Source: Smithella sp. (lineage in GTDB: Bacteria > Desulfobacterota > Syntrophia > Syntrophales > Smithellaceae). From it: a stretch of DNA of 64,000 bases. Below, piece by piece: positions 6,847 to 64,000 of this stretch. The position numbers and the translations under genes are program-made. The notes below the pieces were generated by a model, which worked only from the letters and a program-made list of their open reading frames with translations, had not been told where the DNA came from and ran no database searches. Each line of letters starts with the position of its first letter. Within the stretch, counting starts at the first letter, position 1. The stretch is taken from positions 27,528 to 91,527 of the forward strand of contig JBKQWB010000003.1 of NCBI GenBank assembly GCA_052139735.1. Reading direction: 5' to 3'.

Positions 6847-7104
6847 CTATTTTGCTTTATTTAATATTTCCAGCATACGCCAGCGTTTTTCTTTACTCAA
6901 GGGTCTTGACTCAATAATCAAAACCGTATCTCCCAGTTTGCTCTGATTTTTTTCATCATGAGCCTTATATTTCAAGTGCTTACGAACATATTTATGAAAA
7001 ATAGGATGTTTTACCAAGCGCTCTGCTTTAACCACTATTGTCTTATCCATCTTGTTACTTACAACTACGCCCTTAATAGTGCGTTTATTACCCCTCTCAG
7101 CCAT
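6847..7104 (-). CDS. rpsQ: 30S ribosomal protein S17
   Basis: 85-aa ORF (KGVVVSNKMDKTIVVKAERLVKHPIFHKY). Confidence 0.95.
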   Translation of the reverse strand: MAERGNKRTIKGVVVSNKMDKTIVVKAERLVKHPIFHKYVRKHLKYKAHDEKNQSKLGDTVLIIESRPLSKEKRWRMLEILNKAK

Positions 7105-7107
7105 GCG

Positions 7108-7302
7108 TTATCCTGCAGCCTCCTTTTCCTTCAACACGGTGTTGACACGGGCAATATCTTTACGGAAGCGCGCAAGCATCACTGTTGATTCCAATTGCCC
7201 TGATGAATGTCTAATCTTTAATCTAAAAAGTTCTTCACTTAAGTCAGCGATCTTTTGTTTGAGCCCGCTTACATCGAGAGCTCTGATTTCATTAATTTTC
7301 AT
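7108..7302 (-). CDS. rpmC: 50S ribosomal protein L29
   Basis: 64-aa ORF ([29 protein letters not shown]), in operon position. Confidence 0.94.
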
Positions 7303-13695: not shown

Positions 13696-14067
13696 TTAGC
13701 TTGGCTTTTTTGCACCGTACTTTGATCTGCCTTGTTTGCGGTCCTGTACTCCAACAGTATCAAGCGTACCTCTGATAACGTGATACCTTACACCAGGTAA
13801 ATCCTTAACTCTGCCTCCGCGCACCAGAACAACGGAATGCTCCTGCAAATTGTGACCGATACCCGGAATGTAGGAAGTAACCTCATAACCGCTGGTGAGA
13901 CGAACCCTGGCGACTTTCCGCAAAGCTGAATTCGGCTTTTTGGGTGTCGTCGTATAAACTCTGACACAGACACCGCGACGTTGCGGTGAACCCGCCAGCG
14001 CAGGCGTATTTGTTTTCTTTTCTACTTTGATCCGGCCTTTCCGAATCAACTGACTGATTGTCGGCAT
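13696..14067 (-). CDS. rpsL: 30S ribosomal protein S12
   Basis: 123-aa [15 protein letters not shown]...[17 protein letters not shown]. Confidence 0.98.
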
Positions 14068-14176
14068 TTTCCTCCTAAAACAAATCGCTGCTCTTTAAAA
14101 TACTATAGCAGCAGCGAACCGGTGGTACGTACCAGTTCAAATTTTATATGTCAAGCTTTTTCTCAATAAATTTTAT

Positions 14177-17100
14177 TTATTCCGCATTGGCCTGGGCTTC
14201 TTCATCAGCCATCTTAATACCCAGCTTCCGGTACATCACCAAACCGGTGCCCGCCGTTATCAATCTGCCCATAATAACGTTTTCTTTAAGCCCTCTTAAA
14301 TAATCGGTTTTACCTGAAAGAGCAGCTTCAGTAAGCACTTTGGTTGTTTCCTGGAACGAAGCAGCAGAAATAAAACTCTGGGTGCTGAGCGATGCTTTAG
14401 TAATACCCAATAGCATCGGCTCACCTATAGCAGGACGGCCACCTTGAGCTACAACCTTTTCGTTTTCTTCCTGAAAACGGTAACGCTCGATCTTTTCATC
14501 GGCAAGAAATGTCGTATCGCCCGGATCAATTACCTTGACTCTGCGGAGCATTTGACGAACAATGACTTCCATGTGCTTATCGTTGATCTTGACTCCCTGT
14601 AAACGGTAGACTTCCTGCACTTCATCAACCAGGTATCTGGCCAGTTCTTTTTCGCCCTTTATGGATAGAAGATCATGAGGATTATTTACGCCGGACATCA
14701 AGGCATCGCCCGGTATAACCTGGTCGCCTTCCTGAACGCTGATATGCTTGCCTTTGGCAATAAGGTATTCCTTTTCTTCTCCAACCTCCGGAGTTATAAT
14801 TATCTTACGCTTACCCTTGGCATCTTTGCCGTAGGAAACAACACCGCTGATTTCGCTGATAACAGCAAAATCTTTGGGTTTGCGAGCTTCAAAAAGTTCG
14901 GCTACGCGAGGCAAGCCACCTGTAATATCTTTTGTTTTTGTTGTTTCGCGTGGAATTTTCGCAATAATATCTCCGGCCTTGACCTCGTCTCCTTCAGAAA
15001 CAACCAGATTTACGCCTACAGACAAGAGATAACGGGCCACAGCATTCGAATCTGGCAATTTAGCAGTTTTACCTTTGCTGTCCTTGATAGAAACACGCGG
15101 TCTTAAATCTCCACCTTTAAATTCGACAATGATTTTACGGGACAGACCGGTAACTTCATCAACCTGTTCCTGCATCGTTTTTCCTTCGGTAATATCATCA
15201 AATTTAATTGTTCCATCAATTTCAGCTAAAATCGGTATAGAGAAGGGATCCCATTCGGCAATTAACTGACCTTTTTTAATATAACTATCCTCATTCACTT
15301 TCAGATGGGCGCCATAAGACACCATATACTTGCCACGACTGCGTTTCTGTTCATCCAGAACATGAACCTCACCATGACGTTTCATCACAACCAGATCACC
15401 TTCTCTGGTTTTTACCGTATTTAAGTTAACAAACTTAATCACTCCATCATGATGAGCTTCCAGAGTGGAATGTTCATCAAATTTCGCCGTACCACCGATA
15501 TGAAAAGTTCTCATGGTCAACTGCGTACCCGGTTCACCAATGGATTGAGCCGCAACGATACCAACAGCTTCACCAATATTAACCAGATGCCCATGAGCCA
15601 AATCGCGTCCATAGCACTTGGCACAAACGCCATGTTTGGAACGACAAGTTAAAACTGATCTAATGTTAACCTGTTCAATACCGGCATGGTCGATCTTTTC
15701 AACAAGGGCCTCATCTATATCTTCATTGGCTTTAACAATGACCTCACCGGTAAATGGGTCTTTAATTTCCTGCAAGGCAACCCTACCCAGAACACGCTCT
15801 CCGGCGGTTTCAATAATTTCACCGCCTTCCATAAGTGCAGAGACATACACGCCATCAACTGTCTCGCAATCATGCTCCGTAATGATGCAGTCCTGCGCCA
15901 CATCCACCAATCTTCTTGTCAGATAACCGGAATTGGCTGTTTTCAACGCCGTATCGGCCAAGCCTTTACGCGCGCCGTGAGTTGAGATAAAATACTGAAG
16001 AACGGTAAGCCCTTCGCGGAAATTAGCTGTAATCGGCGTCTCGATAATTTCACCTGACGGCTTAGCCATCAAACCGCGCATACCGGCCAATTGCCTGAGT
16101 TGCTGCCCCGAACCGCGGGCGCCTGAATCGGCCATCATGTAAATCGGATTGAAACTTTCAATTCTGCGCTTTTTCCCATCAGAAGAGGAAACTTCTTCAG
16201 TGCTGATGTCCTTCATCATCTCGGAAGCTATTTTTTCTGTAGCCTGCGCCCAGATGTCCACGACTTTATTATAACGCTCACCATCGGTAATCAAACCGTC
16301 CATATACTGTTTTTGGATTTTCAAAACATCTTTATCGGCCTGAGAAACAATGCGTTTTTTGTTTTCAGGAATAATCATATTGCTAATAGCAAAAGAAATC
16401 CCGGAAACAGTGGCATATTTAAAGCCCATATCCTTAAGTTTATCGGCTAAAATAATAGTTGCTTTGTCTCCACACAAACGATAACAATGATCAATTAAAT
16501 TGGTCAGTTCCTTTTTATTCATCAACTTATTGATCATATCAAAATTAATTTGTTCGGGAACTATTTCTGAAAGAATAATTCTTCCCGCTGTTGTTTCTTT
16601 TATTTCCGAATTAATGCGCACTTTAATACGTGCATGTAAATCAATCATGCCAGCATCAATAGCCGAGCGCACTTCATCCGGACCAGCAAAAAGCATTCCT
16701 TCACCCTTAGCTTCTGTCTTCACTCGTGTCAGATAATAAATACCCAAAACGATATCCTGACTGGGAATGATTATCGGACTTCCGTTTGCCGGAGAAAGAA
16801 TATTGTTGGTAGACATCATGAGGACACGAGCTTCCGTCTGCGCCTCAATGGACAACGGAATGTGAACAGCCATTTGATCTCCATCAAAGTCCGCGTTAAA
16901 AGCCGTACACACCAGAGGATGGAGCTGTATAGCTTTCCCTTCAATTAACACCGGTTCAAAAGCTTGTATGCCCAAACGATGCAGGGTTGGCGCGCGGTTT
17001 AGAATAACCGGATATTCGCGCACCACTTCATCCAACGCATCCCAAACTTCGGCTGTTTCCTTTTCCACCATTTTCTTGGCGCTTTTTACGGTAGTTACAT

Positions 17101-54200: not shown

Positions 54201-54772
54201 TTTTCAGCCGGAGGGAATATATCAATAATGCTGCCCCGGATGCTGAACTCCCCTTTTTCCTCTACCAGGCTTTCTCTTTTATAGCCGCCGGAAATCAGGC
54301 GGGAGCAAAAGTCATCTCTGTTGACAGCATCACCCGCTGAAATGATATGCAGATAATTATTGAATTGGGCAAAAGGCGTCACTTTTTGCATTAAAGCGAT
54401 TACGGAAGTAACCACAATTATTTTTGTTTTTATTTGCAGATTAGTAAGGACTTCCAGGCGGGTTAATTCTTCCTCCTTCTGCAGGGCAAACATGTCGATT
54501 GTCAAAAAATCGAGCGACGGATAATGAAATACGGATTCTTCCCCCAGAAACAAAGACAAATCCCGCGCGAAAGCCGCCGCTTCTTTCTCTTCGGGGCAAA
54601 CAATAAGCAGCGGCCTTTCCAGCCGTTCAAAAAGAAGAGATACTAAAAATGGACGAGCCGCGCCATTAAGTCCGCTGACATCAACCTTTGCCGAACCTTC
54701 ACTGATTTGCCGGATAAGATTATGGAGATGTTCAGTACCTTTATTAATTTTTTTTGTGATAAGTTTTCGCAC
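51215..54772 (-). CDS. mfd: Transcription-repair coupling factor
   Basis: 1185-aa ORF with a CarD-like domain, superfamily-2 helicase motifs ([18 protein letters not shown]) and a TRCF C-terminal domain. GTG start. Confidence 0.97.
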
Positions 54773-55059
54773 TGATTACAACCAAGCTTTCTTTAAAATA
54801 ACACAACACTAAAACCCATTCTGCCCCATTCTGAATGAAAAACAGCTCTTCAATCCAGAATGGGCCAAAATGGGTAAGTTGAAATGTTATCTAACCTTCT
54901 TCTCCTGATAATTCAATTGAAAATTTCTTTCCCGGAAATTACCATTGAAAATCAATGTCTCCCAATATCTGTTGACATAAGTCTTGTGTTTGGTAAACTT
55001 GGTATAGAGTATAAATACCGTCTCAAAAAATGAAAATATCCTCGATATTTTATTGCATA

Positions 55060-55088
55060 TTGACACATGGGTATTTTTGAAGTTAAAT
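55060..55088 (+). promoter_or_regulatory. Candidate promoter for selC
   Basis: TTGACA (55060-55065), a 17-nt spacer, then TTAAAT (55083-55088), placing a start site a few nt before the tRNA 5' end at 55107. Confidence 0.5.
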
Positions 55089-55106
55089 TATAAGATATTT
55101 ACCAAT

Positions 55107-55204
55107 GGAAGTGCCAAGGTCACTGGTGGGCCTCCCGGACTTCAAATCCGGTGTTGGGCGCTAAAACCGTCCAGGGTGGGTTCGATTCCCATGCACTTCC
55201 GCCA
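55107..55204 (+). tRNA. selC: tRNA-Sec (selenocysteine tRNA, anticodon UCA), CCA end encoded
   Basis: 98 nt with an 8-bp acceptor stem GGAAGTGC/GCACTTCC, anticodon loop CTTCAAA, a long variable arm, and G-CCA. It closely parallels E. coli selC at GGAAG..., GGACTTCAAATCC, GGTTCGAYTCC and CTTCCGCCA. Confidence 0.95.
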
Positions 55205-55207
55205 ATT
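55192..55207 (+). repeat. Direct repeat, left copy (selC 3' end)
   Basis: TGCACTTCCGCCAATT, with a partner at 56982-56997 (15/16 identical, including 12 consecutive identical nt). Confidence 0.85.
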
Positions 55208-55408
55208 ATTCATACAACATTAATAACTTAACATTTTAAATTCGATCCGATACTGATCCGATAACAGAATTTTTACATATAAAAATATGCAACCTATAAT
55301 TATCAATTTCTTCCTTAAGCAATAAAACGTTAACATTGACAAACATTCAAGATTTCAATTCGTAATAAACACAATCCGTACCCCACACATTTTATGATCA
55401 AGATTATC

Positions 55409-55437
55409 TTGACACACAAGACTGTGTTTTCTATACT
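55409..55437 (+). promoter_or_regulatory. Consensus-like sigma70 promoter for the antiporter gene
   Basis: TTGACA (55409-55414), a 17-nt spacer, then TATACT (55432-55437). Confidence 0.55.
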
Positions 55438-55486
55438 TTAGCCAAACGAGTACGTGAGCGAAACGCAGGATGGATGGAGTTTTACT

Positions 55487-56797
55487 ATGACGACGCCGTT
55501 GAAAGGGCTTCCTCCGCAGATGTTGCTGTATCTCCTACTGCAACTGGTTTTCCTCCTTGGAACGGCGCACCTTCTCGGGGAACTGGCACGGCGCTGGAAG
55601 CAGCCCGCGGTACTTGGAAACATCTTGGCCGGCGTGCTGCTTGGACCTTCAGTGCTGGGGCATTGGTTTCCTGCACTGCAGTTGGCAATCTTCCCGCACG
55701 ACCAGAACCAGGGCAATTTGCTGGCGGCCGTCACTTGGATTGGGTTGATCTTGCTGCTCTTATCGACAGGGTTGGAGACGGACCTTGACTTAATCGTACG
55801 CAAATGGCGCGTCTCCGTTTCTGCCTCAGCGGGTGGGATCATCGTTCCGTTTATCTCCGGCTTCCTCCTGGGACACTTCATTCCCGAAACTTTTCTGGCG
55901 CATCCAAACGACCGCCTGGCGTTTTCCCTGTTTCTCGCGGTAGCAATGTGTATTTCATCTCTGCCGGTAATTGCCAGCATTATGAGGGAGATAAAGGCGA
56001 TCCCGCTAAGTATCAGGCAGATCGCCTTGGCGGCCGGCATGATGGATGACACGGTTGGATGGACTCTTCTTGCGATCGTGTCGGGACTGTTCTTGAGCGG
56101 CCGGTTCGACAACCTGATTGTCGCTCGCATGGTTGGCATTGCTATGCTGTTTCTGCTGGTCAGTTACGTCGCAGGCAGGCCACTGGTACGCTGGATCGTG
56201 ACCCGGACCAATAGCGTGTCGCCTCACCCTTCCGCGCAGCTTGCGATACTCATTTTTTTGGGAATCATTGGCAGTTCGATCACTCACTCGTTGGGATTGG
56301 AAGCGACGCTGGGTGCATTTGTGGTGGGAATCCTGGCGAGCACGGTCCCGAGCATTCGCAAAGACACGGCCCAATCACTCGATCTTGTAGTGACGTCGTT
56401 TCTGGGGCCCATCTACTTTGGGCTGGCCGGCTTACGCTTCGATTTATGGGGCCTACTTCATTGGAATACTTTCCTCATCGCCTTGGCGGTTATAGCGATC
56501 GCCTGTTTTGGCAAGATCGTCGGCGTCTATCTTGCGACCTGGGCTGGAGGGGTTTCCCACTGGAAGCGATTGGCTCTGGGCTTTGGTATGAACGCACGCG
56601 GTGCTGTGGAGATCATCGTGGCAACTCAGGGCTATTCCATGGGCCTGCTCAATTTGCAGGTATACTCGATGATCGTGCTAATGGCGGTGGTCACGTCCGT
56701 GATGGCTGCCCCCTTGATGAAATGGGCAGTATCCCATTTTGACGCCGGCAGCAGTGAAGTCGAACTGCTTCCCGGCGAGGGGACTGGCTCGAAGTGA
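55487..56797 (+). CDS. Cation:proton antiporter (CPA2 / Kef-NapA-like membrane domain)
   Basis: Multi-TM ORF with N-terminal LLQLVFLLGTAHLLGELARRWKQPAVLGNILAGVLLGPSVLG, typical of Na+/H+-exchanger family proteins. The ATG at 55487 follows GGAG; the ORF-track start at 55454 is GTG. Confidence 0.85.
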   Translation: MTTPLKGLPPQMLLYLLLQLVFLLGTAHLLGELARRWKQPAVLGNILAGVLLGPSVLGHWFPALQLAIFPHDQNQGNLLAAVTWIGLILLLLSTGLETDLDLIVRKWRVSVSASAGGIIVPFISGFLLGHFIPETFLAHPNDRLAFSLFLAVAMCISSLPVIASIMREIKAIPLSIRQIALAAGMMDDTVGWTLLAIVSGLFLSGRFDNLIVARMVGIAMLFLLVSYVAGRPLVRWIVTRTNSVSPHPSAQLAILIFLGIIGSSITHSLGLEATLGAFVVGILASTVPSIRKDTAQSLDLVVTSFLGPIYFGLAGLRFDLWGLLHWNTFLIALAVIAIACFGKIVGVYLATWAGGVSHWKRLALGFGMNARGAVEIIVATQGYSMGLLNLQVYSMIVLMAVVTSVMAAPLMKWAVSHFDAGSSEVELLPGEGTGSK

Positions 56798-56981
56798 CCT
56801 TGCCTGCCGGTCGCGAAACTCAGAAAAATACTTCAGAGGATTGTCTATCTCCTCTTCTCTCCCAAACATACCACAGATGCACAAACCCAACTATGTAGAC
56901 CAAAGGGCTGAAGCACGACAATATTTTCATCCGCTTTTGTGACAGTATGCTGTCATGTAGGTTTCAATCTGCACCTCAATC

Positions 56982-56997
56982 TGCACTTCCGCCGATT
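56982..56997 (+). repeat. Direct repeat, right copy (partial selC 3' end)
   Basis: TGCACTTCCGCCGATT. The preceding AGGTTTCAATCTGCACCTCAATC loosely resembles the selC T-arm GGGTTCGATTCCCA. Confidence 0.8.
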
Positions 56998-57258
56998 GAA
57001 TGATTTCGGGGGGTTTGATTAAGTTCATCAATCCTTAATTTATGGTAACTCTACTTCACCGCAGCTTTAAACGCGTTAGCCGGTTTAAATTTTGGCGTAG
57101 TTGCTATTTTAGCTGTTTTGCCGCGTTCACTGATAAGGTTAAGTGAGGCGAACGACAACGCAAACCTGAAAGCTATTATAATCTTGACATTTATTATCAA
57201 AATAGTATGTTTTTCTAAATCTAACCACTAAATAAACTATCTATGCGCCGGAGGAGTT

Positions 57259-57891
57259 ATGAAATCTTTATTTTCAATAGTTATTATATGTCTTTTGCTG
57301 GTTCCCCTGGGAGTTAACGCGGCAGCGGTAGAGGCAGAATGGATTGATACCGATAAACCAAATTGTAAAATATGGAATGAAGTCCCTGCAAAAGGCGAGA
57401 CCGTATCATGGTCAGGAGAGTGTGTGAAGGGATACGCTTCCGGCTACGGAACTGCGATTTGGTCTCTAAACGACAAAGAAGCCCAGCGTTATGAAGGAAT
57501 ATTGAAGAAAGGCAAATGTGCCGGCATAGGGACTTTAACCTTTGCCAATGGCAATAAATATGCAGGAGACTTTAAAAATAACAAAAGTACCGGCAACGGG
57601 ACTTACACCTTTGCCAATGGCGATAAATATGAAGGGAGCTTTGTTGATAGCGATTTCCATGGCGAAGGGACGCTATCCTTTGCCAATGGCGATAAATACG
57701 AAGGGGACTTTGTTCATGACAATTTCAGCGGCAAAGGGACTTACTACTATGCCAATGGCGAGAGATACAAAGGGGGCTTTGCTGATGGCAATTTCCAAGG
57801 CAAAGGGACTTACACCTGCAGCAACTACAAAGAATTTAAAGGTAATTTTGAAAGCGGCATCCCGGTTGGATTTGTTATAAAATGTAATTAA
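57259..57891 (+). CDS. Secreted MORN-repeat protein
   Basis: Signal peptide, then repeated YEGxFxxxxxxGxGTYTFANGDKYEG units (MORN-type). Confidence 0.85.
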   Translation: MKSLFSIVIICLLLVPLGVNAAAVEAEWIDTDKPNCKIWNEVPAKGETVSWSGECVKGYASGYGTAIWSLNDKEAQRYEGILKKGKCAGIGTLTFANGNKYAGDFKNNKSTGNGTYTFANGDKYEGSFVDSDFHGEGTLSFANGDKYEGDFVHDNFSGKGTYYYANGERYKGGFADGNFQGKGTYTCSNYKEFKGNFESGIPVGFVIKCN

Positions 57892-58080
57892 TCGGGAATA
57901 TAGAAATAAATTTTTTAATCCTTTTTAATATTAATTTTAATGAAAATTTAATTTTATAATGATGGAGAATAATTAATCATCGGTGGCGAAATGAAAGAGT
58001 AATGTTAAGATATTCGGGATACTGCAATGCACATATTGAGTCTTTTAAAAAGATAAGACGGCATAGGAGGTTCCCGGTTT

Positions 58081-58126
58081 AACCCCTCGCAAGAAACAAT
58101 GTATTTCACGAGGGGTTTTTGTTTTT
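58081..58126 (+). terminator. Intrinsic terminator about 190 nt after the MORN gene
   Basis: AACCCCTCG-(19 nt)-CGAGGGGTT followed by TTTTGTTTTT. Confidence 0.65.
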
Positions 58127-58188
58127 CTCATTACTGACCTGTTCTTGATTTAATAAACACAGACATTGTCGGGCGCAAATAATTATTG

Positions 58189-58890
58189 TCAATCCGACAA
58201 ATAATATTCAACGGTTGAGACAACTCTTACCTGCTTTATGTACGGGGTATTGATATCACGATCTTCAATAGAAAATTCACCTTGCGAAGCGCTTTTGATT
58301 TTCCCCAGCTTACTGTTTGAATCCCGGGCAAACTTTTCTGCCACTGCTCTGGCATTTTTTGTCGCTTCCTCAATCATTACCGGTTTAAGTTCATTCAATT
58401 TTTTAAATATAAAGACCGGCTTAGACTGATAATCTCCCCCTGAAATCGCGATGCCCTGTTTGCCCAATTCCACAAATGATGCCATTGTTTTTCTTACCAG
58501 GTCGACATTTTCACTGTAGATATTAATTGTAGATATGCCCGAATAACGGAATTTGGCTTTATCGGATTGTTGATCGAGTATAGCAGGGGCAGAGATGGAA
58601 ATATCTTTATCCTGAAATCCATGTTTATTTAGAAATTCTAGGATGATTGAGTTTTTTTGCTGGATGGTAAAGAAGATCTTATTCAGATCATTATCGGCTA
58701 CACTGAATTTAATAGGCCAGATTGCAACATTGGACTGGACTTCACGCTCGGATAATCCCTTTACCGTAACGATTCTTTCTAAAGCCTTTAGCTTTACAAT
58801 GCCCCCGGCTATAAAATAACCAAGCAATGCCAGGCCAATACACACAAGTATTCCCTTGATAAAAGCCGCGCCGAGACTATCGTCATTCAT
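58189..58890 (-). CDS. SIMPL-domain (DUF541/YggE-like) protein
   Basis: N-terminal TM segment, then a SIMPL-like pattern (VTVKGLSEREV...). The ATG at 58890 with an upstream GGAGG is preferred over the ORF-track start at 58953. Confidence 0.75.
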   Translation of the reverse strand: MNDDSLGAAFIKGILVCIGLALLGYFIAGGIVKLKALERIVTVKGLSEREVQSNVAIWPIKFSVADNDLNKIFFTIQQKNSIILEFLNKHGFQDKDISISAPAILDQQSDKAKFRYSGISTINIYSENVDLVRKTMASFVELGKQGIAISGGDYQSKPVFIFKKLNELKPVMIEEATKNARAVAEKFARDSNSKLGKIKSASQGEFSIEDRDINTPYIKQVRVVSTVEYYLSD

Positions 58891-59378
58891 ATAACCTCCG
58901 TTTAAATTTGCTCTATAAATCCAATCTTTCCAAAGCCTCTTGACAACATACATACGCTATCTGTCCAACAATTTTTATATGTTTCCCTGCTGACACCGCA
59001 AATGCCATAATATTGAGCTATAACTATTATCGTTTGTAATCTACCATAAAAATAATATTTTAGGAAATGAGAATTCCAGAAGAAGTGCCTGCTGTCTACG
59101 TAAGCAATCAATCTCTATCCGATCTTCGTATTATTTACTTATCTCTACAAGGAGGATAAAGAATAGCCGTAGACCGATTAAATATTTATCGGTATCTGTT
59201 AAACCTGTTGCAAGAAAAAATAAACATGATAAAATATATCTATATTCGGCATTTCCCTTTCTTTTTTGTGAAAAGGCAATCGCTTTTTAGTATTACACTC
59301 GCGGCCGGAAAAAGAGTTGCCCATTTAAGATGCACATATTTGAACATGACTTGTGCTCTTTCATGGAGAAAGGCATTT

Positions 59379-59744
59379 ATGCAAAACACTGGCGGGAACG
59401 TTCCCTCGCGCTACGAGATGAACCATCTGGTTCGCAACGTCCTGACCCGACATAGGGCCAATCTGGAACTTATTACAATTTCCTGCACAAACCGGATTGT
59501 CTATCTTTCCGGCTCGCTTGTTAAAACGACAAAACCGGATTACAAGATTGCCGATATCGATCTCATTTTTCGGGAAATAGCGCAGATTCCAAGAGTCCAC
59601 AGCATCTATGCCGATCTGGACAACTGGACAGTCAGCGCCATTGAAGGTACGGGGGAGTGGCTCGTGTCCCAAAAAGGCACCGTTTTCCGTCCACAAACGC
59701 AAAAGACGATTCACCTGACAACAGGATTTAAAGGGGAGGATTAA
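59379..59744 (+). CDS. Hypothetical protein (possibly BON-like)
   Basis: 121-aa reading from the ATG at 59379 after GGAGAAAGG. The upstream part of ORF 59208-59744 looks non-coding. No firm family match. Confidence 0.45.
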   Translation: MQNTGGNVPSRYEMNHLVRNVLTRHRANLELITISCTNRIVYLSGSLVKTTKPDYKIADIDLIFREIAQIPRVHSIYADLDNWTVSAIEGTGEWLVSQKGTVFRPQTQKTIHLTTGFKGED

Positions 59745-59892
59745 TCGCCGACGTACTCGATGATATCAAAAAGGTAAAACAGTAAAATTCGAGTATGATC
59801 TATTGGGGCATAAGACAACGACTCTTGCTGCGGCTTAAAAACAAGGTCTTGAATTTATTTTCTATCGTCATCAAAAAATAAGGAGGAGGGAC

Positions 59893-60339
59893 ATGGAAGA
59901 GATTAATCGCATTCTTGTTGTAAGCTGGATGACCCAATCATGTAAAAAAACGATCCATTATGGAGTTTCACTGGCGGAGAAATATAAAGCCGAGCTTTCT
60001 GTGATTCATATAGTTAACACGTTCTGGCTTCAGGGATGGAGTGTGCCCATGATATCCCTTATCGAAGAGCGGAAGAAAGATTTGCAGAGAGTGAAGCAGG
60101 AACTGGATAATATTATTAACAGCGAAAAAAAGAAAGGCATGACGATCAGGGAGTTTATTAAGGAGGGTGATCCGGTTGAAGAAATTCTGAAAACTATTGA
60201 AGATGAAAAAATTGATCTGCTTATTTTGCGTGCCCAGAAAGAAGGCCGCACGGAACATTTTCTTATAAGCGGCAGCAATGATGCCATCATCCGGAAAATA
60301 CCCTGTTCAATCTACTTAGTAAAGGACGAACCACGATAG
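59893..60339 (+). CDS. Universal stress protein (UspA family)
   Basis: 148-aa ORF (ILVVSWMTQSCKKTIHYGVSLAEKYKAELSVIHIV...GSNDAIIRKIPCSIYLVK). Confidence 0.85.
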   Translation: MEEINRILVVSWMTQSCKKTIHYGVSLAEKYKAELSVIHIVNTFWLQGWSVPMISLIEERKKDLQRVKQELDNIINSEKKKGMTIREFIKEGDPVEEILKTIEDEKIDLLILRAQKEGRTEHFLISGSNDAIIRKIPCSIYLVKDEPR

Positions 60340-60543
60340 GGTGTGTATCGCATCTGGCCGAAGCAAGAATCTATACGAAAATGGCGTCCGGAATATGTTT
60401 TAACAGGCGCCTTCAGGCTCTTCACTGATGCCTTAAGCTATATTATTACAAGACATTTTCGGGTTATGATTGGGCTAAAATAATTGCGGATTTGTCTTTC
60501 AAGGTAATCTTTGCCAAACGGCACTTTTTGCAGCCAATATTCG

Positions 60544-60572
60544 TTGACATATTAAACAATTCTTCATATACT
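60544..60572 (+). promoter_or_regulatory. Consensus-like sigma70 promoter for the beta-propeller lipoprotein gene
   Basis: TTGACA (60544-60549), a 17-nt spacer, then TATACT (60567-60572). Confidence 0.55.
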
Positions 60573-60633
60573 CCCACACCAAAAAAGAAATACTTAATCA
60601 AATTTAAAAATAATCCGCATACATGGAGAAAAA

Positions 60634-62187
60634 ATGCTGGTACTGTCTATGAATAAAAAACGCGAATTTAAATTTTTTTTGAGGATATTGATCAAGACCG
60701 TATGGGCTGTTGGCTTGATGGCCATTCTAACGTCCTGCGGCACCTCACCTGGATACAATTACACAATTAGCGGCACGGTCAGCGGAATGATCGGAAGCGG
60801 ACTGGTATTACAGGACAATGGAGGAGATGACCGGTCCGTCACTGCCAATGGCGCTTTTGCCTTTGTAACGGCGCTGACCACCGGAACCACCTACTCCGTC
60901 ACGGTAAAAACACAGCCGACCAACCCTTCCCAAACTTGCGTCGTCAGTAACAGCAGCGGCACAATCAGTGGCTCGCCAGTGCAAAACGTGGCCGTGAGCT
61001 GTGTGATGAATTCCAGTCCTGTTACGGTTGACCCATCAGGGCTATTTGCCTATGTGTCAAATTCTGGTCCTGGTAACATCGATGCCTATACCATCAATCA
61101 GACTACAGGGGCATTGAACTCCGTTTCAGGAAGCCCATTTACTGCCGGCACATATCCCACCCAAGTCACGATTGACGCATCAGGGAAATTTGCCTATGTG
61201 GCCAATATAGGTGACGGCACTATTTCGGCCTACACCATAGATAATACCTCCACACCCGGGGCATTGAACTCCGTCACAGGAAGCCCGTTCACTGCCGGTT
61301 TAAGTCCCGTCTCCGTCACGATTTATCCATACGCATCAGGGTTATTTGCCTATGTGCCTAATATGGGTTCCGGCAATATCTCGGTCTATGCCATCAATCA
61401 GACTACAGGGGCATTGACCACCGTTACAGGAAGCCCGTTCACTGCCGGTACAAGTCCTATTTCCATCACGCCTTACGCTAACGCATCAGGAGCATATGCC
61501 TATGTGCCCAATATGTCTGACGGCACTATCTCGGCCTATACGATCAATACAGACGGGTCATTGACCCCTTCCATTAACACCCCGACAGTGACTGCGGGGA
61601 CGTATCCTGCATGTTTCACGATTTACGCTAACTCATCAGGAGCATTTGCTTATGTGGCAAATATAGGTAACGGCAATATCTCGCTCTATACTATCAATTC
61701 CGACGGGTCATTGAGCCAGAACGGAAACGCAGTGACTGCAGATATCTATCCTGCCTCCGTCACGATTTACCCTAACTCATCAGGAGCATATGCATATGCC
61801 TATGTATCCAATATGGGTAACAGCGATATTACGGCCTTTGCGATCAATCCCTCCAATGGGACATTTGCGAGCTACGTTACAGGAAGCAATTTCGTTACCG
61901 GTACGTATCCTAACCCGGTCACGCTTTACACGAACTCATCAGGAACATTTGCCTATGTGTCAGACAGGAATGATGGCAACATCTGGGTTTATTCAATTAA
62001 CGGAACCAATGGAGTATTGACTAATATTCAGACAATGGTGACTGCAGGGATACTAAGTTTTACCACCGTTACGATCGACCCCCAAGGGCCCTATGCTTAT
62101 GCATCAGATGTGAATACCGGTCTTGTCTATGCCTTTACTATCAATCCCGACGGGACATTGACCCTTGTTACGGGAAGCCCGTTCTGA
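60634..62187 (+). CDS. Lipoprotein with N-terminal Ig-like region and lactonase-type beta-propeller repeats
   Basis: Lipobox LTSCG, then about 9 units of FAYV.N.G.G.IS.Y.IN...GAL..V.GSPF.AG..P. Confidence 0.8.
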   Translation: MLVLSMNKKREFKFFLRILIKTVWAVGLMAILTSCGTSPGYNYTISGTVSGMIGSGLVLQDNGGDDRSVTANGAFAFVTALTTGTTYSVTVKTQPTNPSQTCVVSNSSGTISGSPVQNVAVSCVMNSSPVTVDPSGLFAYVSNSGPGNIDAYTINQTTGALNSVSGSPFTAGTYPTQVTIDASGKFAYVANIGDGTISAYTIDNTSTPGALNSVTGSPFTAGLSPVSVTIYPYASGLFAYVPNMGSGNISVYAINQTTGALTTVTGSPFTAGTSPISITPYANASGAYAYVPNMSDGTISAYTINTDGSLTPSINTPTVTAGTYPACFTIYANSSGAFAYVANIGNGNISLYTINSDGSLSQNGNAVTADIYPASVTIYPNSSGAYAYAYVSNMGNSDITAFAINPSNGTFASYVTGSNFVTGTYPNPVTLYTNSSGTFAYVSDRNDGNIWVYSINGTNGVLTNIQTMVTAGILSFTTVTIDPQGPYAYASDVNTGLVYAFTINPDGTLTLVTGSPF

Positions 62188-62511
62188 AAAGGCGGAAGCT
62201 TTCTTCTTGGCCGCCGTCTTCGGATACAGGTATCCCTTTACATCCGCACGTTGTACGAGATAACCAGAGTCTGCGACGCCTTGAGATGGATGCCGCATTA
62301 CACCAGGATGACAACCCCTCCAATTAATCTTTCAAAAGACCACCTTTGGAGAAGGAGATGGAAAACTTATTGCCCGAAGCCTCCGAGAGAGAAATATATT
62401 TATCAACTCAAATGGGACATTTCCACTTTGGCTGGACAAGATACGGACAAAACTTGACACAGACATAATTTAAATTTATATTTAAACAGATTTTCAATAA
62501 GGAGGCAGACC

Positions 62512-63210
62512 GTGAAAAAATTAACCGCAACCTTTTTATTTATTCTTTTCCTCTTTCCAACTTTTGCGTTTGCTAAAAATTTACCCATAGAAGAACAATT
62601 CAAAAAAAGTTTCCCAAAAAATATTTTTGAAAGCATAACGCCCACCGATATTAAAGGAATTTATGAAGTCTATACGGGCAACCAGATTTACTATTACATG
62701 CCGAAAGACGATGTAATCCTCTATGGAAATTTAATTTCCAAAAATGGAGTAAATATCACCCATGAAAGCTTTTCTAAAAAGATGGCGCAAAAAATGGCCA
62801 AATTACCTCTGGAGAGCGCACTGAAAATCGGCAATGGAAAAACGGCTGTAGTGGAATTTATGGATCCAAACCATTCTCCCTGCCGTCAGGCTTATAAATT
62901 CTTTTCTCAACGTCAGGATGTAACATTGTATGTTTTCTTTTTCCCGCTAACTAAAGACTCGGCAGATAAAATCAAACATATTTTATGTTCAAAAGATGCG
63001 GTGAAGACGTATGATGATGCAGTGACCGGAAAACTCGATAATAAGGCTCCTCTTAATATTTGCGTTGACAAAAAAGTAGATGAAACCGTCAAAACGCATA
63101 TGCAACTTGCGTCGCAAATCGGAGTCAAAACAATACCCTTATTTTATATCAAGGGTCAGGTCGTTGATGGATTTGATTCCAGCGCTATTGAAAAACTCTT
63201 GAAAGATTAG
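62512..63210 (+). CDS. DsbC/DsbG-like periplasmic thioredoxin-fold protein with HSPC in place of CxxC
   Basis: Signal peptide, a DsbC-type N-terminal dimerisation pattern (IKGIYEVYTGNQIYYY), and a thioredoxin-fold part VVEFMDPNHSPCRQ...GVKTIPLFYI. GTG start after AAGGAGG. Confidence 0.75.
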   Translation: MKKLTATFLFILFLFPTFAFAKNLPIEEQFKKSFPKNIFESITPTDIKGIYEVYTGNQIYYYMPKDDVILYGNLISKNGVNITHESFSKKMAQKMAKLPLESALKIGNGKTAVVEFMDPNHSPCRQAYKFFSQRQDVTLYVFFFPLTKDSADKIKHILCSKDAVKTYDDAVTGKLDNKAPLNICVDKKVDETVKTHMQLASQIGVKTIPLFYIKGQVVDGFDSSAIEKLLKD

Positions 63211-63224
63211 ACCAAATGTATAAA

Positions 63225-63263
63225 TCCGGTAGCCGCTTTTTTCAAAGAAAAGCGGCTACCGGA
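63225..63263. terminator. Strong hairpin between the convergent dsbC-like gene and metG
   Basis: TCCGGTAGCCGCTTTT-ttcaaag-AAAAGCGGCTACCGGA forms a perfect 16-bp stem. The right arm overlaps the last metG codons. Confidence 0.75.
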
Positions 63264-64000
63264 TCTTTGCTCCTGTTTTTGCTTCGCGGTCAAATGTCAG
63301 TACCGTAAGTTCTTTATCCGTATCAGTCGCCAGCAGCATGCCGTAAGATTCTACTCCCATTAATTTCATCGGTTTTAAATTGGCAACGATCACTATTTTT
63401 TTGCCGATTAATTCCGCGGGGGTATAGTCCTTGCCGACACCGGCAACAATTGTGCGTTCTTCACCTATATCGACTGTAAGTTTTAAAAGTTTATTGGATT
63501 TGGGAACAGCTTCCGCCGCCAGAATTTTTGCCACACGTAAATCCACTTTGGCAAACTCCTCGTAGTCAATTTCAGGTTTTAAATCAATCATGGAAGATTT
63601 TTTCTCCTGCGTCTGGTTTTCTTTTTCCTGAACAATGCGCGGGAACAGCGATTCGCCGCGAGTTAAGGGGCTGCCCGCTTTTAATATATCACCTTTTTTT
63701 ATACTGGCCATATCCAGATTAGATTCATCTACTCCAATTTGCCGCAAAATTTTCTCCGCGGTTTGCGGCATGAAAGGCTTGAGCAAAACAGCTATTGACC
63801 GCAAGGCCACAAGCAAATTAAACATAATTGCTGTTAATTTTTCCTTGTTCGCGGGGTCTTTTCCCAAAGTCCACGGCTCATTTGCGACAATATATTTATT
63901 AGTGATATTTATAAAATCCCAAATGGCAATCAAGGCTTTATGCAGGGACATGTCATTAAAACTGGATTCGACTTCTGCGACTGTTTTCAAAGCTGCTTCA
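63256..64000 (-). CDS. metG: Methionyl-tRNA synthetase, C-terminal part (gene continues beyond the right edge)
   Basis: Anticodon-binding region, then a C-terminal tRNA-binding domain (VDLRVAKILAAEAVPKSNKLLKLTVDIGEERTIVAGV...). The frame is open to the window end. Confidence 0.9.
   Translation of the reverse strand, partial: EAALKTVAEVESSFNDMSLHKALIAIWDFINITNKYIVANEPWTLGKDPANKEKLTAIMFNLLVALRSIAVLLKPFMPQTAEKILRQIGVDESNLDMASIKKGDILKAGSPLTRGESLFPRIVQEKENQTQEKKSSMIDLKPEIDYEEFAKVDLRVAKILAAEAVPKSNKLLKLTVDIGEERTIVAGVGKDYTPAELIGKKIVIVANLKPMKLMGVESYGMLLATDTDKELTVLTFDREAKTGAKIR

Follow-up and report, generated by a model that had tools for sequence, protein, structure and literature searches.

The 64,000-nt stretch of Smithella sp. 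DNA analysed here, referred to below as the window, contains the gene for selenocysteine tRNA, selC, followed directly by a short islet (55205-56981) whose single recognizable gene encodes a predicted cation/proton antiporter. Coordinates are those of the window, features are on the forward strand unless stated otherwise, and the loci and contigs used for comparison carry L numbers, positions within L021, L046 and L089 being given in the orientation of the window. selC lies at 55107-55204; it is intact, has the anticodon TCA, encodes its CCA end, and was detected both by ARAGORN and with the Rfam model RF01852 (tRNA-Sec), against which it scores 74.8 bits, the gathering score being 47. No other Rfam family was found in 54700-57400. 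Over 99 nt the gene shows 100% identity to its counterpart in L014, the closest relative, and variable DNA begins at 55205, i.e., immediately 3' of the intact tRNA gene.

The islet is bounded by a direct repeat of the selC 3' end. The final 13 nt of selC, CCA included, together with 3 flanking nt form the first copy (TGCACTTCCGCCAATT, 55192-55207), which resembles the left attachment (att) site, attL, of an integrated element. The second, attR-like copy (TGCACTTCCGCCGATT, 56982-56997) is a displaced fragment of the selC 3' end and matches the first in 15 of 16 positions. A first-pass annotation, made from the letters of the same DNA, had pointed to this recurrence about 1.79 kb downstream, and the observation stands up well against chance: the two copies are the only matches to the 16-mer in the window at up to two mismatches, 0.06 matches are expected from dinucleotide-preserving shuffles, and none of 100 shuffles reached two. 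No additional copies of the selC end were found in 57000-64000. The same annotation had described a degenerate T-arm-like stretch ahead of the second copy. This did not hold, in that the sequence upstream of that copy aligns to the tRNA with a score of 10, compared with 11.9±2.2 for shuffled sequence, and is thus not significantly tRNA-like. An 11-nt tandem duplication, TCAATCTGCAC-C-TCAATCTGCAC (56964-56974 and 56976-56986), covers the first 5 nt of the second copy; TCAATCTGCAC is present as a single copy in L097, and the duplication could be a scar of recombination.

The antiporter gene (55487-56797) is intact and encodes 436 amino acids counted from an ATG that has GGAG about 8 nt ahead of it, as read from the sequence; the open reading frame (ORF) itself opens upstream, at a GTG at 55454. 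The protein matches PF00999 (Na_H_Exchanger) with E=5.6e-49, aligned at model positions 6-374 of 375, and contains a DD motif (MMDDTVG). Its closest solved structure is that of a Na+/H+ antiporter (PDB 4BWZ/5BZ2, E=3e-31), which we take to be Thermus NapA. We predict an ion exchanger of the CPA2 type, with the reservation that the score against the CPA2 model TIGR00932, 116 bits, is below the cutoff of 238 bits. As proposed earlier, this is the single gene between the repeat copies, being the only ORF there that belongs to a recognizable family. The 233-aa shadow ORF on the opposite strand (55438-56139, reverse strand), also noted at that stage, is present, has no Pfam family and is not regarded as a gene; the antiporter homologue in L013 has an equivalent antisense ORF. 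Most homologues at about 50% identity are proteins of about 750 aa with C-terminal Usp domains, which the islet antiporter lacks. Because the short form is common to the clade of donor-type genes described below, it is not the product of decay after transfer. A stand-alone Usp gene (59893-60339) lies in the native block 3 kb downstream of this Usp-less antiporter, which is probably a coincidence.

The antiporter gene had been judged conspicuously rich in G+C, and windowed G+C, third-position G+C (GC3) and segmentation all bear this out. The ORF has a G+C content of 55.7%, compared with 42.2% for the window, and is the window maximum, the standard deviation among windows of the same size being 2.9%. 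Its GC3 is 66.4%, against 40.5±4.6% in the 31 other genes (z=5.6). Maximum-likelihood two-state segmentation delimits a block of foreign compositional type at 55440-56814, with 55.9% G+C inside and 38.4% outside. This block is enclosed in a shell of low G+C content, namely 27% in 55205-55439 and about 44% in 56815-56981. The upstream part of the shell starts with an AT-rich leader (family A, 55205-55289, 22% G+C) containing two 9-nt direct repeats GATCCGATA at 55244-55252 and 55255-55263, 11 nt apart, which are putative arm-type binding sites. The sigma-70-like promoter TTGACA-N17-TATACT that had been noticed in the AT-rich lead-in is located at 55409-55437; it matches at 11 of 12 positions and ends at the G+C junction. 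The downstream part of the shell, the 3' tail of the islet (56815-56981), includes the 11-nt duplication and a 57-nt segment (56913-56969) with a GACAG..CTGTC hairpin. The latter is 79% identical, in inverted orientation, to sequence adjacent to an insertion sequence (IS) in L003 (8847-8900), L005 and L097 (1520-1573). Leader A occurs at 80-86% identity in L016, L019, L064 and L087, and less completely in L029, L034 and L062, and the genes downstream of it in these species are unrelated. Since a high-G+C block lies inside a low-G+C shell whose first ~85 nt are common to antiporter-less Smithella, the islet is, by this analysis of its composition, a mosaic and not one piece of donor DNA.

Several minor observations concern the components of the shell. 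The IS beside the 57-nt-like copy (DUF772/DDE_Tnp_1) lies downstream of the MORN gene in some strains, and these strains also have an extra 171 bp inserted after 57995. A stretch of about 65 nt in the AT-rich lead-in (55308-55374) has two counterparts, ~78% identical, in L021 (20062-20129 and 21952-22002), which flank genes of 29% G+C in a selC-linked variable region. In viral contigs, selC plus leader A gave 0 matches, and the tandem-repeat pattern of the leader gave coincidences in coding sequence plus one contig, L116 (IMG/VR, 34.9% G+C); at 7021-7113 the latter has two units, each with three CGTTCCGATA repeats resembling GATCCGATA, that are not beside a selC core.

The distribution of the gene and the affiliation of its homologues indicate where it came from. 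We scanned 80 loci anchored on mfd, the neighbour of selC, in species of Smithella, Smithellaceae and Syntrophales whose Mfd proteins are 54-95% identical to that of the window; selC lies beside mfd in 50 of the 80, and the antiporter was found at the mfd/selC locus in none of these 80 loci of related species. The protein is 100% identical to an NCBI entry from a metagenome-assembled genome (MAG) of a Smithella sp. Beyond that, the nearest antiporter genes are those of L012 (86% nucleotide identity) and of L013, L098 and L099 (82.5%), and nucleotide homology to all four is confined to the coding sequence (55492-56789). The contigs that carry these homologues have G+C contents of 57.7% (L012) and 55.7-59.2% (L013, L098 and L099), so that the composition of the antiporter gene is native to them. 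One of these high-G+C contigs is Terracidiphilus-like. For the neighbouring mfd, the best relatives are in Smithella genomes. Horizontal acquisition of the antiporter is supported by its composition, by its absence from the 80 related species and by the location of its nearest relatives in genomes of 56-59% G+C. The first-pass annotation's claim of horizontal acquisition is therefore supported. None of the observations that it had named as refuting arose; the antiporter was found at selC in none of the related loci, and the compositional difference persists under statistics.

The donor was a high-G+C lineage, possibly an acidobacterial one. On L098, a 306-kb contig, the antiporter homologue lies near aspS and hisS, and the AspRS encoded there has 87-88% identity to its counterparts in several MAGs of Terracidiphilus (Acidobacteriota). 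For L012, the names in its cluster are contradictory (Gaiellaceae, Desulfuromonadaceae, Verrucomicrobiae) and tetranucleotide correlations are uninformative. In L013, a gene for a tyrosine recombinase adjoins the antiporter homologue. The acidobacterial-type gene had probably entered low-G+C mobile DNA by the time it arrived, or did so in the course of its arrival.

Comparison of the loci shows the DNA after selC to be a hot spot, in that it varies between relatives and in several of them holds modules bounded by att-like repeats. When the first 100 nt after selC were compared among 44 relatives and the window, 22 similarity clusters resulted. Direct repeats of the selC 3' end occur downstream of selC in three relatives. 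In L041, a 26-nt repeat bounds a 4.7-kb island with genes for a tyrosine integrase and for Rep-like, PARP-like and SecB-like proteins. In L046 (HGW-Deltaproteobacteria-12, 13888-14504), a 17-nt repeat bounds a 519-bp islet with a lone Inhibitor_I42 gene, encoding a chagasin-type peptidase inhibitor; as a single-gene islet it is a close parallel to that of the antiporter. In L089 (15068-22549), from a host of 58.7% G+C, three copies of the selC end are arranged in tandem, with a 66-nt repeat 4.7 kb and a ~12-nt copy 7.4 kb downstream; the first module contains Fic and DUF433 genes and no integrase gene. Downstream of selC in L024 there are a Schlafen-type gene, an HU-like gene, an integrase gene and a PriCT/AAA_25 primase-helicase gene.

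A leader that we call family C, seen in the first ~100 nt after selC, is found in 11 relatives (L020, L021, L023, L024, L046, L070, L072, L077, L080, L083 and L084) and in L097, from Smithella to Syntrophus, over a range of Mfd identity of 57-86%, and L023 has a second family C leader 3 kb downstream. It contains a TTCGAT-N4-ATCGAA palindrome and three CTTTAACC repeats. It is more conserved than ordinary intergenic DNA would be, and may be the arm of an element or another functional sequence.

The integrases found in this comparison identify the 3' end of selC as an attachment site. Those of L041 and L024 are 54% identical to each other, and five IMG/VR contigs (L107-L111, 41-56% G+C) encode integrases 51-53% identical to that of L024. 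All five contigs have an exact copy of the 24-nt block TTCGATTCCCATGCACTTCCGCCA, which in the window is formed by the last 24 nt of selC (55181-55204) and which phage-type and element att sites have in common. In each case the copy is situated downstream of the integrase gene, at a distance of 90-470 nt, and no tRNA is present in the fetched loci. The 26-nt direct repeat of L041 contains the same block. L111 resembles a temperate phage, with genes for Erf, an exonuclease, the integrase and portal/adaptor proteins, and its copy of TTCGATTCCCATGCACTTCCGCCA is situated between the integrase gene and the structural genes, which is the usual position of attP. Because the exact block accompanies related integrases where there is no tRNA, the selC 3' end is a genuine attB, and the comparison shows it to be where a family of tyrosine integrases, encoded by phage-type viral contigs and by small integrative elements, has its attachment site. 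The general statement in the first-pass annotation that tRNA 3' ends, and that of selC in particular, are targets of integrases is thereby found to apply in this lineage, through five contigs with an attP-like block and the integrase-bearing elements of relatives. The five contigs suggest a selC-targeting phage family that spans hosts of low and high G+C content.

A sister lineage, L097, provides what appears to be an allele without the antiporter. This contig is 96.4% identical to 56976-57995 of the window (30 mismatches in 1025 bp), and the order of its components is CTTCCGCCA, 157 nt of family C leader, TCAATCTGCACTTCCGCCGATTGAATGA and a window-like flank through the MORN gene. L097 thus has the same distal repeat, with 157 nt between the copies. 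Homology to the window resumes 6 nt ahead of the second copy and leader A is absent, so the entire interval between the repeats is replaced. That the exchange takes in all of the interval supports the view that the repeats bound a module.

Just past the second copy, and therefore outside the antiporter module, lies the remnant of what appears to have been another element. A fragment of an HU/IHF-like gene (57054-57122, reverse strand, with its stop codon at 57051-57053) preserves ~25 C-terminal codons; it was identified by tblastn with the HU protein of L024, translates as …GKTAKIATTPKFKPANAFKAAVK*, and is 68% identical to that protein over 25 aa (E=1e-4). In L024 the full HU gene accompanies the integrase and primase genes, and in L023 the same HU fragment precedes the second family C leader. 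From the segment 57147-57258 onward the DNA is native and not part of the islet: it is the start of a block MORN-SIMPL-orf-Usp-lactonase-dsbC-metG, and 57147-64000 aligns collinearly to Smithella sp. SMAG_U14785 (L095), with an identity of 76-87% and short gaps that do not align. In L044, L059 and L065, dsbC-metG lies within ~200 nt of selC, with a dsbC promoter region that aligns to window 62438-62490 (the 62438-62511 region), and five genes (MORN, SIMPL, orf, Usp and lactonase-like) precede dsbC in both the window and SMAG_U14785. A 7-kb island at 55205-62437, as drawn from L044, L059 and L065, was considered and rejected, there being no further copies of the selC end and the block being native in SMAG_U14785. 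Because the MORN-to-metG block is contiguous in SMAG_U14785 and located away from selC, it is native, and the difference from L044, L059 and L065 is a rearrangement.

Within the species the islet is widespread. Assemblies from ENA, NCBI and Logan include 21 contigs that encode the identical antiporter protein, the longest of them 959 kb. In 10 carrier contigs the gene order is mfd-selC-antiporter-MORN as far as each contig extends over the flanks, and at least 14 of the 21 agree exactly at both islet junctions. Relative to L003, there are 25 single-nucleotide polymorphisms (SNPs) in mfd (7.0/kb) and 11 in 57063-57966, and none in 54732-57062 (Poisson ~6e-9). Relative to L002, the flanks have 9-12 SNPs/kb and 55102-59311 has none. 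The two SNP-free tracts overlap at 55102-57062, which corresponds approximately to selC, the islet and the repeat. The absence of SNPs from the islet among strains with diverged flanks points to its recent spread among them. Because the break points of the tracts differ between strains, this pattern suggests that the spread proceeded by homologous recombination in the flanks, with variable end points, and not only by site-specific integration. A scan of metagenomes for the attR junction (a 28-mer) gave 0 matches, the species apparently not being in the JGI set.

To account for these data we favour, with fair but by no means full confidence, a reading in which 55205-56981 is an integrase-less cargo islet, akin to a cis-mobilizable element (CIME), that arose through repeated integration and decay at the selC hot spot and later spread. 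Elements would have integrated one after another at selC, by tandem accretion, each integration displacing the tRNA 3' fragment of the previous one. Deletions would then have removed integrase and replication modules, leaving behind the HU-gene fragment of an older element and, nearest to selC, a cargo-only antiporter module. The latter would have spread through the species by homologous recombination in its flanks, possibly also with integrases acting in trans, and would probably have been retained for the benefit that a cation/proton exchanger brings in the habitat. The first-pass annotation had similarly proposed the remnant of an element that lost its integrase. Its horizontal origin, its selC target and its delimitation by repeats are borne out; the creation of the distal repeat upon arrival and the derivation of the islet from a single piece of donor DNA are not. 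Loss of the integrase gene from the antiporter module itself is something we infer; the module contains no integrase remnant, and the HU fragment lies outside it.

A number of results weigh against this reading. Neither an integrase gene nor a remnant of one was found inside the islet, where the ORFs between the copies were checked by Pfam, and tblastn with three selC integrases revealed no homologues in the 64-kb window. Of the 24-nt block that phage-type and element att sites have in common, the second repeat copy retains just the last 12-13 nt, and because only this part of the identity block is kept, the copy may have ceased to function as an att site. L097 has the distal repeat and its flank without the antiporter, so that the arrival of the antiporter did not necessarily create the distal copy. 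The L097 comparison is itself that of a single contig, which begins only 9 nt into selC, and the boundary test therefore consists of one observation. Leader A occurs in antiporter-less species, with ordinary-looking genes downstream, and for this reason could be a flank that has long been resident at the site and did not belong to the delivering element. DNA of high G+C content is restricted to 55440-56814 and does not fill the att-bounded interval, so that the limits of the att-bounded unit differ from those of the donor-type DNA. The SNP-free tracts extend past the repeats on one side in each strain, which fits homologous recombination rather than att-to-att integration. Lastly, the identity of the donor derives from one contig, L098, and the closest homologue, L012, is without settled taxonomy.

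Some of these results would also be explained if the antiporter, i.e., approximately 55440-56814, had entered an old, decayed, att-bounded relic at a later time and independently of the repeats, for example through illegitimate recombination, through an event mediated by an IS, or through recombination with DNA of another low-G+C host. The repeat would then mark the hot spot and not the vehicle. The distal repeat without antiporter in L097, the high-G+C block 400 bp shorter than the att-bounded interval, and leader A in antiporter-less species are all consistent with such a secondary capture, as are the resemblance of the 57-nt segment at the right end to IS-adjacent sequence in L003, L005 and L097 and the fact that homology to the donor-type genes ends at the ends of the coding sequence. 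However, what distinguishes the window from L097 is an exchange of the entire interval together with the leader, and its break points lie at the two repeat copies; the high-G+C block has no flanking IS, terminal inverted repeats or target-site duplication; and an empty shell, in which leader A is joined to the tail with no gene between them, was seen in 0 of the fetched loci. We regard secondary capture as the main rival, possible but distinctly less probable than a cargo islet formed by integration and decay. Delivery by an integron or an IS was rejected: neither IntI nor attI was found, no attC was recognised by eye, and there is no IS in the window, the 57-nt IS-adjacent similarity being the only trace of one.

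A more ambitious extension of the cargo-islet reading is that selC in Smithella and other Syntrophales acts as a docking platform, at which small integrase-less modules, several of them single-gene, would be swapped by integrases of phages and elements acting in trans, much as cassettes anchored at a tRNA might be. Candidate examples, by analogy, are the antiporter islet, the 519-bp chagasin-type islet of L046 and the Fic/DUF433 module of L089, each of which is bounded by short repeats of the tRNA end. We consider this doubtful. If it were true, the antiporter would represent a recent transfer from Acidobacteriota to an obligate syntroph that swept a peat population.

It is, in turn, highly improbable that the antiporter is a native Smithella gene of odd composition, inherited vertically, with the 16-mer a coincidence. 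The gene is indeed present in every contig recovered for the species, and membrane proteins can show skewed composition; against this, its GC3 deviates too far from that of the other genes (z=5.6), the gene is absent at this locus from 80 related species and is 86% identical at the nucleotide level to a gene on a 57.7% G+C contig, the repeat has a chance expectation of 0.06, three relatives likewise have the 13-mer again downstream of selC, and the islet is without SNPs while the flanks have them. Vertical descent is thus effectively refuted. So, with even less left in its favour, is a chimera of assembly or binning, in which an acidobacterial gene was wrongly joined to Smithella contigs: the mixed-community samples do hold both kinds of organism, and L012 comes from the same ENA assembly series as the Smithella contigs, but both junctions are identical on at least 14 of 21 contigs from independent ENA, NCBI and Logan assemblies, and the low-G+C shell and the repeat lie inside carrier contigs of up to 959 kb.

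Features of genomic islands in general have been reviewed (PMC2704930), and a regenerated tRNA gene with a displaced fragment is the mark of island ends on which the Islander database is based (PMC4383910). Like the tRNA and tmRNA islands described there, the islet adjoins the 3' end of an intact tRNA gene, has a displaced fragment in direct orientation at its far end, and shows deviant composition and sporadic distribution; the blocks of 24-26 nt (T-stem type) and 66 nt (anticodon type) seen at selC in relatives and in phage-type contigs correspond to the two classes counted in that work (PMC4383910). Unlike those islands, it measures 1.8 kb, contains one gene and no integrase gene, is a compositional mosaic inside, and has a displaced fragment that represents 13 nt of the tRNA, about half of a T-stem-type block. 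Because it has no integrase gene, the filters of Islander would reject it.

The islet shares with CIMEs the lack of genes for integration and transfer, the position of cargo between copies that resemble attL and attR, at a site that integrase-bearing elements also use, the occurrence of tandem arrays in relatives (three copies in L089) and the adjoining fragment of an older element. It differs from them in that its attR is shortened and may be inactive. Its attL is the end of an intact selC, and the part upstream of attR is not significantly tRNA-like. The carriers of integrases seen here are, moreover, phage-type contigs and small integrase/primase elements, and no conjugative element is known in the system; the spread of the islet within the species looks like homologous recombination, and its mobilization is putative.

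selC is a well-known site of islands in Enterobacteria, the locus of enterocyte effacement and others being found at selC, pheU and pheV (PMC6174562, PMC7545054). The target gene is the same here, and in both cases the locus holds variable, strain-specific foreign DNA. The differences lie in the host, which belongs to the Syntrophales (Desulfobacterota), in the size, which is 1.8 kb rather than tens of kb, and in the cargo, which is an ion transporter rather than virulence genes. The integrases of the enterobacterial selC islands are P4-like. A partial resemblance to integron cassettes may also be noted, in that the islet, too, is a single-gene, promoter-dependent module with short repeats at its ends that is apparently exchangeable at a fixed docking site. 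The repeats of the islet are, in contrast, derived from a tRNA, and the module has its own promoter-like site; the window contains no integron integrase or attI, and no attC was seen by eye, no dedicated attC search having been made. The recombinase of L013 scores 44 bits against an integron-integrase cutoff of 265.

In all, the antiporter islet is a clean but ordinary tRNA-linked genomic islet that reveals no new mechanism. Its interest lies in placing an active integration hot spot at selC outside the Enterobacteria, in syntrophic Deltaproteobacteria of peat and sediment, and in illustrating that a cargo-only module can persist and spread there. Its boundaries are unusually clean, which makes it a useful example for island finders that require an integrase gene. 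An ion-homeostasis gene of a high-G+C, probably acidobacterial, type has recently become fixed in a Smithella population, and cation/proton exchange as an acquired trait of a syntroph, the peat-type Smithella, is a lead for peat microbial ecology.

The DNA on the other side of selC varies as well. In distant Syntrophales, the 13-mer is also present in inverted orientation, 1.9 kb upstream of selC, in what appears to be part of a coding region where no tRNA is predicted. The gap between mfd and selC is ~1.5 kb in most relatives, 335-575 bp in the window (54773-55106), L014, L016 and L062, and 3.5-7 kb in several others. In L041 it holds a gene that is, by eye, MoeA-like.

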